Below, piece by piece: positions 1,179 to 7,621 of a stretch of 7,660 bases of DNA. Below the pieces are notes generated by a model. That model saw only the letters and a program-made list of their open reading frames with translations, was not told the DNA's origin and made no database searches. This stretch comes from a virus (taxonomy: Duplodnaviria; Heunggongvirae; Uroviricota; Caudoviricetes), in the IMG/VR virus record IMGVR_UViG_2579778529_000005; one strand, given 5' to 3'. Both the position numbers and the translations under genes were made by a program. Position 1 is the stretch's first letter, and the number at the start of each line of letters is the position of its first letter.

Positions 1179-1363
1179 TGTGCACATCCTTTTGGCATCA
1201 GACGTAAACGAGCCAGCATTGAAACAATGCATATTTTATTTAATAGCTCCCGTTCTTGTTTTCTCTTGTTAATGGCATCTTCAGTAAATACAGGGTTACT
1301 GATAGTGACACCAATTTCAAAACAACCTTCAGACGTATTAACGTTTGGTAATAACGTTTTCAT
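1175..1363 (-). CDS. dicB: DicB, 62-aa cell-division inhibitor (MinC-interacting), translated from an in-phase internal start
   Basis: Internal ATG at 1363 of track ORF 1175..1468 gives MKTLLPNVNTSEGCFEIGVTISNPVFTEDAINKRKQERELLNKICIVSMLARLRLMPKGCAQ, matching my recollection of DicB. GAGGA RBS 8-12 nt upstream. The longer upstream frame fits the published in-phase internal start. Confidence 0.9.
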   Translation of the reverse strand: MKTLLPNVNTSEGCFEIGVTISNPVFTEDAINKRKQERELLNKICIVSMLARLRLMPKGCAQ

Positions 1364-1530
1364 TATCGCGTCCTCAACAATGAATTTTGTGATGCAGTGC
1401 CTGGTGCCTCCAGGTGACGTTAACCAGTTAACAATTAACGCCGGATACAGAGAATCCACCCATAACACTGTTTTTGGTTTTAACTGTTCCGCGTGCGCTT
1501 AGCCGCATTCACCGCATCACAAAATTCACT

Positions 1531-1575
1531 TTAAAAAGGGCGGCAGAGCAGTCACGGAGTAAAACTGATACCGCC
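1531..1575 (-). terminator. Rho-independent terminator forming the 3' end of DicF
   Basis: GC-rich stem GGCGG...CCGCC inside the 3' half of DicF, immediately followed by a T-run on the minus strand (plus-strand A-run 1533..1537). Confidence 0.7.
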
Positions 1576-1590
1576 AAACGTCACCAGAAA
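1538..1590 (-). ncRNA. dicF: DicF small regulatory RNA (53 nt; Hfq-dependent, targets ftsZ and other mRNAs)
   Basis: Reverse complement of 1538..1590 reads TTTCTGGTGACGTTTGGCGGTATCAGTTTTACTCCGTGACTGCTCTGCCGCCC, the DicF sequence as I remember it, followed by a U-run (plus 1531..1537 'ttaaaaa'). Confidence 0.85.
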
Positions 1591-1923
1591 ATTGATAACA
1601 GAGGGCGTTGCAGCGGGGTTGTCACTTAAGCGTATGGTCAACCTGACAACCCGGTGTCCTCAACGGGGAAGGAATAACCCCGCCATACTTACCGCCGCGC
1701 CATTTCGCGGGTTGCCACAACCGGAAGCGCACGGTCGACGAAAATTTAACGACAGGCTATCTATGAACCAGCTACCTCGCCGTGCGCTTTCGCGTTATGG
1801 TCTGACTTTTCAGGGAAATATCCTTTCAGTAAACTGTCAGTGCCGGATGTTCACCCGTGTCCGGCGCACGCACTCCACCTCACCCGTGGAGAACTCCTTA
1901 ATTACCAACCCTCAGGAGGGTGA

Positions 1924-2157
1924 ATGTTAAAATCAACTCTTATTGCTAAATGCCTTTATCAAAATCGCATGGTAAGCAGCATTTCAATAGGCGAGTCTGC
2001 AGTTAAAAGTATTTTCGAAGAGTACTTCCCCGGGCATGATTTTAATAAATGGAATACCAAATTACCGCCAGCAGTTTCAACGCGTATTCTGAAAGCAACT
2101 GAAAGAGCAAGTACAATTCGCGTTAACTATTTCATTAAAGATTTGTGGGATCTTTGA
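1924..2157 (+). CDS. Hypothetical 77-aa protein encoded opposite to the dicB operon; no recognisable domain
   Basis: ATG at 1924 preceded by a perfect AGGAGG (1914..1919) at 4-nt spacing. AT-rich coding sequence follows a GC-rich structured region. The 3' end overlaps the 3' end of the 135-aa gene by 23 bp. No homolog recognised. Confidence 0.5.
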   Translation: MLKSTLIAKCLYQNRMVSSISIGESAVKSIFEEYFPGHDFNKWNTKLPPAVSTRILKATERASTIRVNYFIKDLWDL

Positions 2158-2542
2158 TATCCACAGAGCCTAAAGTATGTGCATATGGATGTGCTATTGT
2201 GCGCCCTCGCAGATTTGCATCATTTTCTAAATTCACTGAACGAAACAGGGCATCAACAAGGCTCTGTACAATGCAAAGGCAATCGAAGACTGTCGCTGTT
2301 TCTGTTTTGATTGATGAAAGAACATGGCCATTCACGCAAACAGAAATTACCCGTTCATTAACATCGCTTTCCTGCTTTTGATTATCAGAACCATATAGCC
2401 CAGAAAAAGCATTGCGCACATTACGAACCATATTATCGATGGTTTCTTTTTTGGTGTATGCCGGGTCAATTTTCACCAGACTATCACCGAGAGTCGTTGC
2501 AGCAATTGTCTGGATTTCTTTTGGTAAATCTTTAAATTCCAT
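2135..2542 (-). CDS. Hypothetical 135-aa soluble protein, extra gene in the dicB operon between ydfC and dicF; function unknown
   Basis: ATG at 2542 with GAGG RBS, starting 22 bp downstream of the ydfC stop on the same strand. Intact 135-codon frame ending TAA at 2135..2137. I do not recognise the protein (MEFKDLPKEIQTIAATTLGDSLVKIDPAYTKKETIDNMVRNVRNAFSGLYGSDNQ...). Confidence 0.65.
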   Translation of the reverse strand: MEFKDLPKEIQTIAATTLGDSLVKIDPAYTKKETIDNMVRNVRNAFSGLYGSDNQKQESDVNERVISVCVNGHVLSSIKTETATVFDCLCIVQSLVDALFRSVNLENDANLRGRTIAHPYAHTLGSVDIKDPTNL

Positions 2543-2564
2543 TATTAGCCTCGTTGGTTAGCTA

Positions 2565-2783
2565 TTAACGTGGGTATGTAATCATTCTGGCAATGCTTAA
2601 TGCCGCTGCTTTTTCCAGATTGGTGATATCCTGCTCCAGAGCGGACAGATTTTCAGCCTGCTTAGCCCTGGCTTCATTAGCCCATTTCAGATCCTGCGCT
2701 GCATTAATTTTCTGGCGCATCCACTCATAAAGTTCATCATCGGTATAGTCTGGCGCGATTATGACGGGTTCTCGTTTCTGCAT
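2565..2783 (-). CDS. ydfC: YdfC, 72-aa Qin-prophage protein of unknown function
   Basis: MQKREPVIIAPDYTDDELYEWMRQKINAAQDLKWANEARAKQAENLSALEQDITNLEKAAALSIARMITYPR matches my recollection of K-12 YdfC. GAGGAA RBS 6 nt upstream of ATG at 2783. Confidence 0.85.
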   Translation of the reverse strand: MQKREPVIIAPDYTDDELYEWMRQKINAAQDLKWANEARAKQAENLSALEQDITNLEKAAALSIARMITYPR

Positions 2784-3264: not shown

Positions 3265-3672
3265 TTATCTTTTATTTGTCCGCTGACGGGCTTTTAGTAA
3301 TTCTTCAAAGAGTTTATTGAAGTTTTTTACTCGAGCTCGCATTTCGGCGAGCTGGGTATCCTGTTCTGATTCTGGCAGTGCATTAAACAGCTCAAGGAGC
3401 TCTAGTTCTTTGGGGGATAAGGCAACTGGCTTCTCAACAGGTGGTGTTGGTTGCTTGTCTTCATCGCCAAATAGAATCCATGTTGGTGAGCATTGCAATA
3501 CTTTGCTGAGGGCAAAAAGGTTCTTCCCTGTAGGTTCACTATCACCCCGTTCCCATTGTGATACAGACACATGGGAGATTTTCAGGGCTTTAGCAAGAGA
3601 CCTTTGGGTGTGTTTGAGGTTTTTCCGACGATACCTGATGCGTTCGCCGATAGTTAAATTTTTTGTTTCCAT
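3265..3672 (-). CDS. dicA: DicA, 135-aa XRE-family HTH repressor (cI/c2-like immunity repressor of the dicB operon)
   Basis: METKNLTIGERIRYRRKNLKHTQRSLAKALKISHVSVSQWERGDSEPTGKNLFALSKVLQCSPTWILFGDED... has an N-terminal HTH (QRSLAKALKISHVSVSQWERG) and matches K-12 DicA as I recall it. Divergent from dicC. Confidence 0.92.
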   Translation of the reverse strand: METKNLTIGERIRYRRKNLKHTQRSLAKALKISHVSVSQWERGDSEPTGKNLFALSKVLQCSPTWILFGDEDKQPTPPVEKPVALSPKELELLELFNALPESEQDTQLAEMRARVKNFNKLFEELLKARQRTNKR

Positions 3673-5477: not shown

Positions 5478-5900
5478 GTGGCAAAAGTTTTTACACAAGA
5501 AGAGCGGGAAAAAATTAAATGGCAGGTGGTGGAACTCGTGCGCCAGAGCGGCCGTGAGACGTTACGGCAACTGGAAGCTAAAACAGGTGCGACTAGATAT
5601 CTGATGAGCGTTCTTGCCAGAGAGCTGGTAGCCAGTGGCGATGTATACAACTCCGGCTACGGGTTATTCCCCTCTGAACAGGCGCGTAAGGACTGGCAAA
5701 ACGCCCGCAAAAAACTCTCGAGGGCAAAGGTGAAGAAACCTGCTGTGGTTGATCCGGACCTTATCTGGTCATCACCTGACGGAGAAATACGTCGCTACGA
5801 CAGTCGCCTAAACATAATCTGTCGCGAGTGCCGGAAGAGCGAAGTTATGCAGCGCATACTGGCTTTCTATCAGGGTAATTTTCAGGACGTGGCGCAGTGA
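5478..5900 (+). CDS. Hypothetical 140-aa phage protein (GTG start), translationally coupled to the downstream methyltransferase-like ORF
   Basis: GTG at 5478 preceded by AAGGGGGA RBS at about 5-nt spacing. Basic protein with a CRECRK motif. Its stop overlaps the next start (GTGA at 5897..5900). Confidence 0.6.
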   Translation: MAKVFTQEEREKIKWQVVELVRQSGRETLRQLEAKTGATRYLMSVLARELVASGDVYNSGYGLFPSEQARKDWQNARKKLSRAKVKKPAVVDPDLIWSSPDGEIRRYDSRLNIICRECRKSEVMQRILAFYQGNFQDVAQ

Positions 5901-6253
5901 GTGCACCGGCAACCATTCTTGATATGTGCTGTGGCAGCCGCATGTTCTGGTTCGATAAGTCTGACGAACGGGCGATATTCAGCGATATCAGAAAAGAAGG
6001 ATACACATTACGCAATGGGAGACGCTTGATTATCAGCCCTGACATTATCGCAGATTTTCGTGCATTATCATTTGCAGACGCATCTTTTTCGATGGTTGTA
6101 TTAGACCCTCCGCATCTTGAGAGTGTTGGTGATAACGCCTGGATGGGAAAGAAATATGGACGGCTGAATAAAGATGCCTGGCGTGATGATTCGCGACAGA
6201 GATTTAAAGAAGCCTTTCGGGTGTTGAGGCCGCACGGCGTTCTGATTTTTTAA
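5897..6253 (+). CDS. SAM-dependent methyltransferase-like protein, 118 aa, possibly C-terminally truncated (candidate pseudogene)
   Basis: Motif I-like LDMCCGS near the N-terminus and motif IV-like VVLDPPH about 60 residues later (the D/N-PP-Y/F/H signature of amino-methyltransferases), then RVLRPHGVLIF. The frame stops at TAA 6251..6253 but stays open for about 30 more codons (WNETQIPVSQILALTDRKPVICQRTGKKR) before the next stop. IS3 is inserted about 150 bp downstream. Confidence 0.5.
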   Translation: MSAPATILDMCCGSRMFWFDKSDERAIFSDIRKEGYTLRNGRRLIISPDIIADFRALSFADASFSMVVLDPPHLESVGDNAWMGKKYGRLNKDAWRDDSRQRFKEAFRVLRPHGVLIF

Positions 6254-6402: not shown

Positions 6403-6441
6403 TGATCCTACCCACGTAATATGGACACAGGCCTAAGCGAG
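6403..6441. repeat. IS3 terminal inverted repeat (right end, IRR)
   Basis: Imperfect inverted match to the terminal 39 bp at 7622..7660 (TGATCYTACCCA...TGGACAC...CTAAG). Confidence 0.85.
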
Positions 6442-7299
6442 GTTCTGGTTTTCAAATTGTTCCGGACTGAGGCCGCCACACCAACTGTGCCGCCGCCACC
6501 GATTGTAATCACATTCGATATAATTAAACACCGTTGCCCGCATTATTTCCCGGCTGATAAAGTGTTCTCCATGGATACATTCCACTTTCAGCGAATGAAA
6601 GAAGCTTTCCACGCAGGCATTATCGTAGCAGCAACCTTTTGCGCTCATACTTCCACGCAGATTATGCCGCTTCAGTTGCGCCTGATAATCTGCTGAACAG
6701 TACTGGCCTCCACGGTCCGTGTGAACGATAACGTTCCGGGGCCTCTTACGCCGCCACAGCGCCATCTGCAGGGCATCGCAGGCCAGTTGCGCCGTCATGC
6801 GTGGCGACATTGACCAGCCAATAACGGCACGTGACCACAGGTCAATGACCACTGCCAGATACAGCCAGCCTTCATCTGTACGTAAGTACGTGATGTCTCC
6901 TGCCCACTTCTGGTTCGGGCCACTGGCGTAAAAATCCTGCTCCAACAGATTTTCTGACACAGGCAGGCCGTGTGCGCGGTAGCTGACCGGGCTGAACTTC
7001 CGGGAGGCCTTTGCCCTCAGTCCCTGACGGCGCAGGCTTGCCGCCACGGTTTTTACGTTAAAGGGGTAACCCTGAGCACGCAGTTCATCCGTCAGGCGTG
7101 GGGCACCGTAACGCTGTTTTGACCGGGTAAAAGCCGCGAGGACAACGCTGTCGCAGTGTTGGCGGAACTGCTGACGCGTGCTTATCCTTGTCCGCCGCTG
7201 ACACCACGTATACCAGCCGCTGCGGGCCACCCGGAGCACGCGGCACATTGCTTTGATGCTGAACTCAGCCTGATGTTTTTCAATAAAGACATACTTCAT
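6433..7299 (-). CDS. insF: IS3 transposase OrfB (InsF), DDE integrase-type catalytic domain, 288 aa
   Basis: [36 protein letters not shown]... matches IS3 InsF as I recall it. Normally expressed as an OrfAB fusion by -1 frameshifting. Confidence 0.95.
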
Positions 7300-7595
7300 T
7301 TCAGGCGCTTCGCGAAGTATGTCGCGGCCTTTTGGAGGATAGCCAGCTCTTCATCCCGTTCTGCCAGCTGGCGTTTGAGACGTGCAATCTCGGTAGACAT
7401 CTCCAGTTCACGTTCAGAAGACGTCTGCTGATTTTGCTGTTTACTGCGCCAGTTGTAGAGCTGTGATTCATACAGGCTGAGTTCACGGGCTGCGGCAGTA
7501 ACACCGATGCGTTCAGCAAGCTTCAGGGCTTCACTGCGAAATTCAGGCGAATGCTGTTTACGGGGTTTTTTACTGGTTGATACTGTTTTTGTCAT
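7296..7595 (-). CDS. insE: IS3 transposase OrfA (InsE), HTH DNA-binding protein, 99 aa
   Basis: [54 protein letters not shown]... The track ORF carries a 3-codon N-terminal extension (MTHMTKTV); the 99-aa form is the known product. Confidence 0.9.
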
Positions 7596-7621
7596 GTGAG
7601 TCACCTCTGACTGAGAGTTTA

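Follow-up and report, generated by a model that had tools for sequence, protein, structure and literature searches.

The early-left (dicBF) operon of a Qin-like lambdoid Escherichia coli prophage carries, immediately 5′ of the small RNA (sRNA) DicF, a long untranslated stretch at positions 1591..1923 of the window (the whole 7,660-nucleotide piece of DNA analysed here, IMG/VR virus record IMGVR_UViG_2579778529_000005; the operon reads on the minus strand). Comparative evidence identifies its DicF-proximal part, module A (1602..1722), as a conserved structured domain with a predicted pseudoknot, and the published length of the longer DicF transcript would make module A the 5′ domain of that RNA. 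DicF is among the oldest known bacterial sRNAs and affects cell division, sugar metabolism and the virulence of enterohaemorrhagic E. coli. We think it probable that the stretch as a whole is a structured untranslated scaffold of the dicBF transcript which yields DicF, and that module A serves within it as a cis-acting domain for DicF biogenesis or stability.

The first-pass annotation of this DNA had singled out 1591..1923 as a GC-rich, hairpin-dense, non-coding region upstream of dicF, and this description was borne out. GC content is 0.53-0.58 over positions 1550-1800, compared with 0.36-0.45 in the flanking genes; no minus-strand open reading frame (ORF) of at least 60 aa lies in 1591..2134 (the only ones present have 36 aa and 33 aa); and the DicF match (1538..1589, minus) adjoins the stretch on the operon strand. 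All five of the proposed stem-loops were found: GGGTTGTCA/TGACAACCC (1616-1624/1644-1652) was recovered as inverted repeat I6, and CGGGG/CCCCG (1664-1668/1678-1682), CCGCG/CGCGG (1695-1699/1706-1710), GCCGGA/TCCGGC (1842-1847/1860-1865) and TCCAC/GTGGA (1874-1878/1886-1890) can be read straight from the sequence. The 401-nt operon-strand RNA folds with a z-score of -2.6, and none of 100 shuffled sequences folded as well. Database matches break at recurring points along the stretch, which is a mosaic of three parts: A (1602..1722), B (1715..1800) and C (1801..1923).

On the minus strand, module A comprises five helices (P1, P2, P2.5, P3 and P4) and a pseudoknot that links the P2.5/P3 linker to the P4 loop. 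Helix P1 closes the domain by pairing its 5′ strand GUUGUGGC (1714..1721) with its 3′ strand GCUGCAAC (1607..1614), as seen in the comparative alignments. P2, evident from sequence and alignment, is the hairpin CCGCG AAAUGG CGCGG (1695..1710). P2.5, proposed by RNAalifold, joins GGU (1691..1693) with ACC (1653..1655) and encloses both the pseudoknot strand and P3, a hairpin of variable length and sequence in the alignment (1664..1682). P4 (1616..1652) has 9 bp and a 19-nt loop, GGUUGACCAURCGCYURAG, in which just three positions vary. Complementarity and covariation define the pseudoknot, in which GUAUGG (1683..1688) would pair with CCAUAC (1632..1637) of the P4 loop. The first three of the annotated hairpins are therefore P4, P3 and P2 of a single conserved domain. 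In this respect the earlier suggestion of an additional structured RNA held, whereas the notion of a separate RNA gene did not, the domain being the 5′ part of the known 190-nt RNA.

Two alignments were used to evaluate this fold. The first contained 19 non-redundant copies of module A from viral contigs, phages and plasmids and was not fitted to a model. Here 91.5% of cells were paired, compared with 34-52% when the 3′ partners were slid; eight pairs changed on both sides, and the covariation score was reached by no shuffle. A covariance model (R1) was built from the comparative structure and scored 143.5 bits on the window and 85-96 bits on phages P1 and P7. Its alignment (A5; 98 matches, 58 distinct), which is fitted to the model, had 95.4% of cells paired across the distinct copies versus 34-53% with slid partners and contained ten two-sided pair changes, and its covariation score was matched by none of 500 shuffles. 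Together with the covariation, R1 defines the extent of module A given above.

The changes are spread over most of the domain. Three positions of helix P1 alternate between UG/UA/CG, GU/GC/UA and CG/UG/UA; P2.5 is 100% paired, with U-A replaced by C-G in the phage P7 lineage; P4 (96.4% paired) exchanges U-A for C-G in seven distinct copies; and in P3 three pairs change on both sides (GC, UA, AU and CG types), the whole hairpin being swapped in some copies. For the pseudoknot, 99.1% of cells are paired: GUAUGG/CCAUAC occurs in 84 copies, GCAUGG/CCAUGC in six copies of the phage P1 type, and a U-G pair in three. P2 is nearly invariant (95.8% of cells paired) and shows zero double changes. Two-sided changes thus maintain five of the six helices of module A in diverged lineages. 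As to the hairpins originally noticed, 1616..1652 and 1664..1682 keep their pairing through two-sided changes, 1695..1710 is paired with no double change, and 1842..1865 and 1874..1890 are invariant. On the minus strand, U-G and G-U are the most frequent pairs at two positions of helix P1; on the plus strand these would become A-C mismatches. Because the commonest pairs are wobbles on one strand and mismatches on the other, the functional strand is the operon strand.

A separate sequence likeness was noticed within the 190-nt RNA. The heptamer GGCGGUA is present twice, in the invariant linker of module A (1689..1695) and where the 5′ arm of the DicF terminator begins (1567..1573, minus), and the minimum-energy fold of the 190-nt RNA pairs the module A linker with the 3′ arm of the terminator. 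The likeness is missing in phage P1 and, on kinetic grounds, is unlikely to matter.

In K-12, DicF is made as a 190-nt and a 53-nt species (Ragunathan et al. 2023, PMC10448788, confirming Faubladier et al. 1990). DicF has no internal promoter. RNase III is required to generate the 5′ end of the 190-nt form, which builds up once RNase E has been inactivated, and production of the 53-nt form depends on RNase E. Stationary-phase cells accumulate both species, the 190-nt form being abundant and stable there (PMC10448788). An intrinsic terminator sets the 3′ end of the 190-nt RNA. The K-12 precursor sequence (Fig. S1 of PMC10448788) matches the window in sequence and position. In the window, the 53-nt form occupies 1538..1590 (minus), with the terminator hairpin at its 3′ end and the U-run at 1533..1537; the Rfam DicF model (RF00039, 52 nt) scores 76.7 bits at 1538..1589 against a cut-off of 48 and leaves 1591..1923 outside the model, and position 1590 was added from the published 53-nt sequence, which begins UUUCUGG. 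Counted back from 1538, the 190-nt species would extend over 1538..1727, with its 5′ end between GCGC and UUCCGGUUGUGG, 6 nt before helix P1. Accordingly, module A would form the 5′ two-thirds (~120 nt) of the known 190-nt DicF. Between module A and the sRNA lies an AU-rich single-stranded linker (1591..1606, minus, ending in CUCUGUUAUCAAU), which varies in length and sequence among homologues and which, from its sequence and the published RNase E dependence, contains the cut that creates the 5′ end of DicF.

The 5′ end at ~1727 falls within the 3′ arm of a long imperfect duplex, Hb (1715..1800, minus), which makes Hb the probable RNase III substrate and places the cut in it at about this position. 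Hb was recognized from the fold and from homologues; it pairs a 3′ arm (1715..1738) with a 5′ arm (1777..1800) below a hypervariable apex (~1740..1776). Its folding energy is -36.8 kcal/mol (z = -4.0; none of 200 shuffles as good, for 1715..1802), and 21 of the 24 positions in each arm are paired in the predicted fold, which provides the roughly two helical turns expected of an RNase III site. The stem is kept in homologues whose apex has been wholly replaced, and the Rac-type Hb shows a paired change from AAAG/CUUC to AAGG/CCUC; among the other homologues no covariation was found in Hb, these copies being too alike. The sequence GUUGUGG, the 5′ strand of helix P1, is predicted to pair alternatively with CCAUAAC (1794..1800) in the lower stem of Hb. 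In locus L008, three one-sided substitutions in the CCAUAAC partner all preserve pairing, and the Rac-type loci keep the same choice of partner.

These data suggest the following course of events. RNA polymerase from dicBp, having passed through ydfABC and the 135-aa gene, would transcribe 1923 down to 1533, as demonstrated for K-12. Hb would form and be cut by RNase III at ~1727 to give the 190-nt RNA, which runs to the DicF terminator; both cut and product are documented experimentally, and their placement follows from length and fold. Judging from the covariation, the 5′ 120 nt of this RNA would fold into module A. Since GUUGUGG can pair with either the lower Hb stem or its P1 partner, the RNase III cut probably frees it from Hb to close P1. 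RNase E, on which the 53-nt form is known to depend, would then cut the AU-rich linker to release DicF. Module A would thereby hold DicF as a compact, longer-lived pro-form in which the RNase E site sits between two stable structures, and so would set the rate at which active DicF is released. The accumulation of the 190-nt form without RNase E and its persistence in stationary phase fit a stable pro-form. The order of transcription, RNase III cleavage, 190-nt RNA and RNase E cleavage is established for K-12; what we infer here is how module A folds, what it does, and where in the fold these events take place.

Of 5426 complete E. coli genomes, 4429 had a match to 1591..1923, several matches in one genome being frequent, and most homologous copies are >90% identical. 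Phages P1 and P7, the cdtI and Stx2c phages and many P1-like plasmids carry module A (about 1599..1721) by itself, and phiSTEC1589-Stx1c has the middle and right parts of the stretch without it. All hosts of module A are Escherichia-type phages and plasmids. The pattern GCGGCGGTAAGNATGGC used to scan contigs was too short, and nearly all of its matches arose by chance, R1 confirming just those in E. albertii and locus L227; the module A alignment is for this reason limited to Escherichia-type phages and plasmids. E. coli-type DicF regions of 99-100% identity were also seen in Aeromonas phage AP1 (MT713136.1) and Actinobacillus phage vB_Apl-pPE4 (PP818812.1; locus L006), the latter with a DicA-type immunity region and a copy of module A without helix P1 and half of P2; these may reflect contamination or host mis-assignment. 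The 5′ strand of helix P1 has been lost in three loci (L021, L066 and L006), in L021 by deletion between the direct repeats 1693..1709 and 1778..1794.

What follows module A differs from copy to copy. A hairpin with a U-run lies 50-100 nt past the P4 loop in 76 of 76 distinct downstream sequences, and these hairpins can be grouped in about eight families with little or no relationship to one another (canonical DicF, the cdtI type, the GGCGGGUAUCC and GGCGGCAUCAG types, the phage P1 type and others). The loops and linkers of module A are more conserved than the adjacent DicF seed and terminator. The presence of the same module before some eight hairpin families indicates that, of the two partners, module A is better conserved than the sRNA/terminator unit, which varies. 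There is one copy per locus, always in an early-left operon or in the phage P1 ban leader. In phages P1 and P7, module A starts ~35 nt past the C1-controlled promoter Pban and is followed by a strong terminator, tRNA genes and ban; module A and its terminator, GCCCAUCUUCGGGUGGGCGUUUUUUU, lie at 2450..2632 (minus) of the phage P1 locus (L004), for which L007 is the P7 counterpart. Phage P1 is thus predicted to make an RNA of ~175 nt from Pban, before the tRNA genes and ban, and with a strong terminator between Pban and the ban operon, expression of the operon would need read-through. In phage cdtI, module A comes directly after cI, at a distance of ~290 nt downstream from a pL-like promoter.

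Relatives without module A show how it may have been gained or lost. In phiSTEC1589-Stx1c and the Rac-type loci, the operon strand at the module A site reads CCGGUUGU(G)-(A/G)AUAAC(A/G)AC, a small hairpin made from both P1 strands and flanked upstream by the long stem and downstream by a DicF-like hairpin. Shigella phage 75/02 Stx retains just the 3′ quarter of module A. R1 with filters off gave no match in these module-less loci (phiSTEC1589-Stx1c, Rac-type and 75/02 Stx). The small P1-strand hairpin suggests that module A acts like a domain that was inserted in, or has disappeared from, a conserved hairpin's loop. The layout of stem, hairpin, linker and sRNA constitutes a conserved frame, for the Rac-type and N-type relatives keep the long stem and the sRNA and have a small hairpin at the position of P1.

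Several observations weigh against the course of events and the role of module A proposed above. The double changes come mostly from a few lineages (phages P1/P7 and the cdtI type), and A5 is fitted to its model. Single-sequence folding of the 190-nt RNA misses the comparative structure (z = -1.8), and folding of the counterpart RNA of phage P1 likewise did not reproduce it. The 5′ end at ~1727 is length arithmetic, as the nucleotide marked in the published figure was not legible. The cdtI-type copies have a short linker and no DicF 5′ seed, such that release of a short sRNA may not occur there, and neither phage P1 nor cdtI has an RNase III stem before module A. DicF-type sRNAs are found without module A in L008, L255 and L256, showing that the module is not needed to make such an sRNA. 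Finally, a spacer or protective hairpin would need nothing as elaborate as a pseudoknotted domain of 120 nt whose loops barely vary.

The right-hand third of the stretch (1801..1923) has a history of its own. Its two GC-rich hairpins (1842..1865 and 1874..1890, assigned to neither strand) were read from the sequence and lie within a portable segment of ~80 nt; because they are invariant among homologues, their pairing is neither supported nor contradicted. At the right end, the AGGAGG ribosome-binding site and ATG of the 77-aa gene (1912..1926, plus) mark the left edge of a cassette of two genes (~1917..2553) not present in K-12 Qin. The two genes, encoding 77 aa (phrog_10348; 1924..2157, plus) and 135 aa (phrog_1363; 2135..2542, minus), converge and overlap by 23 bp. 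K-12-type Qin keeps 1591..1916 with few substitutions, directly between ydfC and dicF. Phage phi367 and one E. coli chromosome carry just the last ~95 nt of the stretch. In phi367 the two-hairpin segment and ribosome-binding site precede a different plus-strand gene, in two further prophages yet another plus-strand gene begins at the same ATG position, and L257 has the segment immediately after ydfC, where both a DicF unit and a plus-strand cargo gene are lacking. Locus L014 is without the segment between the short direct repeats 1851..1859 and 1880..1888. We take 1801..1923 from these arrangements to be a separate portable segment at the junction with cargo genes on the opposite strand, which it may serve.

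Coding potential was assessed because a plus-strand ORF of 112 aa (1592..1930, with an internal ATG at 1763), absent from the first-pass annotation, covers the whole stretch. It matches no Pfam or PHROG family, and in homologues it is interrupted by 1-nt indels and frameshifts. For the 150 nt that start at the internal ATG (1763..1912), 30 distinct gap-free variants were compared; their variable sites are distributed 19/28/28 over the codon positions, 19 of the changes being synonymous and 56 non-synonymous, and none of the frames of either strand did better. The excess of synonymous third-position changes expected of a gene was thus not seen, in agreement with the stretch being non-coding, and the 112-aa, 55-aa and 36-aa ORFs were rejected for want of a family and for their indels and codon-position pattern. 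Rfam searches of both strands of 1591..1923 returned nothing at the gathering threshold and nothing up to E = 10, and an ARAGORN scan for tRNA and tmRNA was empty. A type III toxin-antitoxin RNA (ToxI-like) before the 77-aa gene was considered and rejected, there being no tandem repeats in 1500..2000.

The window represents both the immunity and the early-left region of the prophage. Along the minus strand, the early-left (dicBF) operon runs from dicA (3265..3672) through ydfA, ydfB, ydfC (2565..2783) and the 135-aa gene to the stretch, DicF, dicB, ydfD and an exonuclease gene; positions 1400..2600 are 100% identical to strain CV839-06. Some features outside the stretch deserve mention. A sub-threshold Rfam STnc100 match (34.8 bits against a cut-off of 47; E = 4.5e-6) at 1331..1540 (minus) covers highly conserved sequence just past the DicF terminator and the start of dicB, a flank that the Qin, Rac and Stx-phage versions have in common. 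An ORF that resembles a methyltransferase gene and contains an LDPPH motif (5897..6253, plus) stops early, shortly before an IS3-family insertion sequence (6433..7604, minus; orfA 7296..7604, orfB 6433..7299), and may be a disrupted gene. Matches to IsrK and C4 antisense RNA lie side by side in phage cdtI, on the early-right side (L005 4896..5084, plus), and in an E. coli prophage (L010 1517..1705, minus), where the pair lies inside a Rha regulator gene inserted beside the DicF unit. Shigella phage 75/02 Stx contains an unannotated N-type antiterminator gene (L254 4794..5138, minus); it encodes the arginine-rich motif AASRRRAHR and shares 99% identity with the N annotated in phiSTEC1589-Stx1c.

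Other roles for module A were considered. As the chief rival to a biogenesis or stability domain, it could control the downstream terminator in cis, as a processive antiterminator resembling HK022 put or Bacillus EAR, or as a sensor that decides between DicF and read-through (into dicB and the exonuclease gene, or into the tRNAs and ban of phage P1). HK022 put suppresses termination in cis, dependent on the zinc-binding domain of the RNA polymerase beta-prime subunit. Such a role would explain why an intrinsic terminator follows all 76 distinct copies, whatever its sequence, and why in P1/P7 and cdtI the module and terminator stand between an early promoter and all downstream genes, hence demanding read-through; the compact pseudoknotted fold and invariant loops would also suit the binding of a protein such as RNA polymerase. 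An N-type protein was found by tblastn in the early-left operons of none of 132 module-bearing loci, the tested proteins all belonging to PHROGs of unknown function, and both N-encoding relatives are without an intact module A; this comparison draws on those two N-encoding loci, the probes represented two N types only, and the flanks sometimes fell short of the immunity region. We nevertheless regard terminator control as rather unlikely: R1 finds nothing in HK022, blastn and Rfam show no likeness to put, each phage has a single copy with none seen in an early-right operon, a search by eye found no conserved antiterminator pairing with the terminator 5′ arm, and Rac-type loci have the same kind of terminator and U-run with neither the module nor a detectable N. 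Action in trans, by which module A would, for example, bind or titrate a host or phage protein or RNA on its own, either within the 190-nt RNA or as a ~137-nt remnant after RNase E cleavage, is in our view decidedly unlikely. The domain matches no known protein-binding motif or Rfam family, no published stable 137-nt product or phenotype was found, and its hosts are narrow (Escherichia-type phages and plasmids only). This must be set against its being a discrete unit, gained or lost and joined to different 3′ hairpins, with loops and linkers more conserved than the DicF seed and terminator, against the ~175-nt RNA that phage P1 would make from its own repressor-controlled promoter, and against the abundance and stability of the 190-nt form in stationary phase (PMC10448788).

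The first-pass annotation had also raised the possibility that the region is a regulated leader for the oppositely oriented 77-aa gene. As promoter and 5′ leader of that gene, the stretch would account for the adjoining ribosome-binding site and ATG, for the two-hairpin segment preceding different plus-strand genes in other phages, and for the need of a plus-strand gene within a minus-strand operon to have its own promoter. For most of the stretch this proposal fails. K-12 keeps 1591..1916 and L257 keeps the two-hairpin segment with no plus-strand gene; 1591..1923 contains no plus-strand promoter-like site (sigma-70-like) scoring at least 9/12; the wobble pairs in helix P1 of module A suit the minus strand only; and no such gene stands beside module A and Hb in P1, cdtI and Rac-type phages. 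A leader is conceivable for 1842..1923 only, and as an account of the stretch, or even of its right part, we find it improbable. That the region is a functionless spacer whose conservation and pairing merely reflect recent descent and high GC is highly improbable. Most copies are indeed >90% identical, module B and the two right-hand hairpins lack covariation, and the fold z-scores of the whole stretch are modest; yet paired changes preserve five of the six helices of module A in diverged lineages, module A is kept where the neighbouring sRNA and hairpin have been replaced, and processing by RNase III and by RNase E inside the stretch has been demonstrated experimentally. We therefore favour the scaffold for DicF production, with module A as its biogenesis or stability domain.

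The surmise of the first-pass annotation that part of the region is a processing platform proved right, RNase III and RNase E processing having been shown experimentally for K-12 (PMC10448788). The platform is known, as is most of the biology here, and what is added is one structural layer, the conserved pseudoknotted domain. In the accessible literature on the 190-nt DicF, to which several key papers do not belong, the extra 137 nt are treated as precursor, and we found no account of their fold, of a pseudoknot, of conservation beyond DicF or of the occurrence in phage P1; nor does this literature describe the pairing of module A with different terminator modules or its optional presence. It is a tentative possibility that module A represents an undescribed class of phage-borne structured RNA with a function beyond that of a precursor, for example in terminator read-through or protein binding, portable among lambdoid prophages and P1-family phage-plasmids and present in phage P1 in the ~175-nt RNA from Pban. 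If the 190-nt form has a conserved, pseudoknotted 5′ domain that persists across the prophages and P1 plasmids of most E. coli genomes, then the long form of DicF may have a role of its own, such as releasing a toxic sRNA in a controlled way, governing read-through into dicB and the recombination genes, or binding a partner. It also suggests that the 52-nt Rfam model of DicF possibly captures only the variable end of a larger conserved unit.

The closest known system is the 190-nt DicF, or dicBF untranslated region, of K-12 Qin, which is the same locus with a near-identical sequence and the same RNase III, RNase E and terminator ends, and from which the window differs by the added two-gene cassette. 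The 'dicF-like region' annotated in phage P1 (NC_005856, 68791..68892) overlaps phage P1 module A (R1, 85 bits) on the strand of the ban operon. Phage P1 differs in having no DicF by Rfam, sharing mainly module A and a short CAGUUU motif, and its terminator hairpin is unrelated. The putL and putR sites of HK022 resemble module A as structured RNAs located upstream of terminators in the early operons of N-less lambdoid phages. The put RNAs are ~70 nt long, with two stem-loops, and occur in both early operons, whereas module A has ~120 nt, five helices and a pseudoknot and occurs once per phage; membership of the put type was rejected since there is no blastn similarity and no R1 match in the HK022 loci, the architecture differs and module A does not follow both early promoters. 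Lastly, the RNase E-released sRNAs CpxQ, SroC and MicL are, like DicF, cut from a longer mRNA at an AU-rich site by stable stem-loops and carry a terminator hairpin at the 3′ end. DicF differs from them in that an RNase III step comes first and the resulting intermediate bears a large conserved domain with a predicted pseudoknot.

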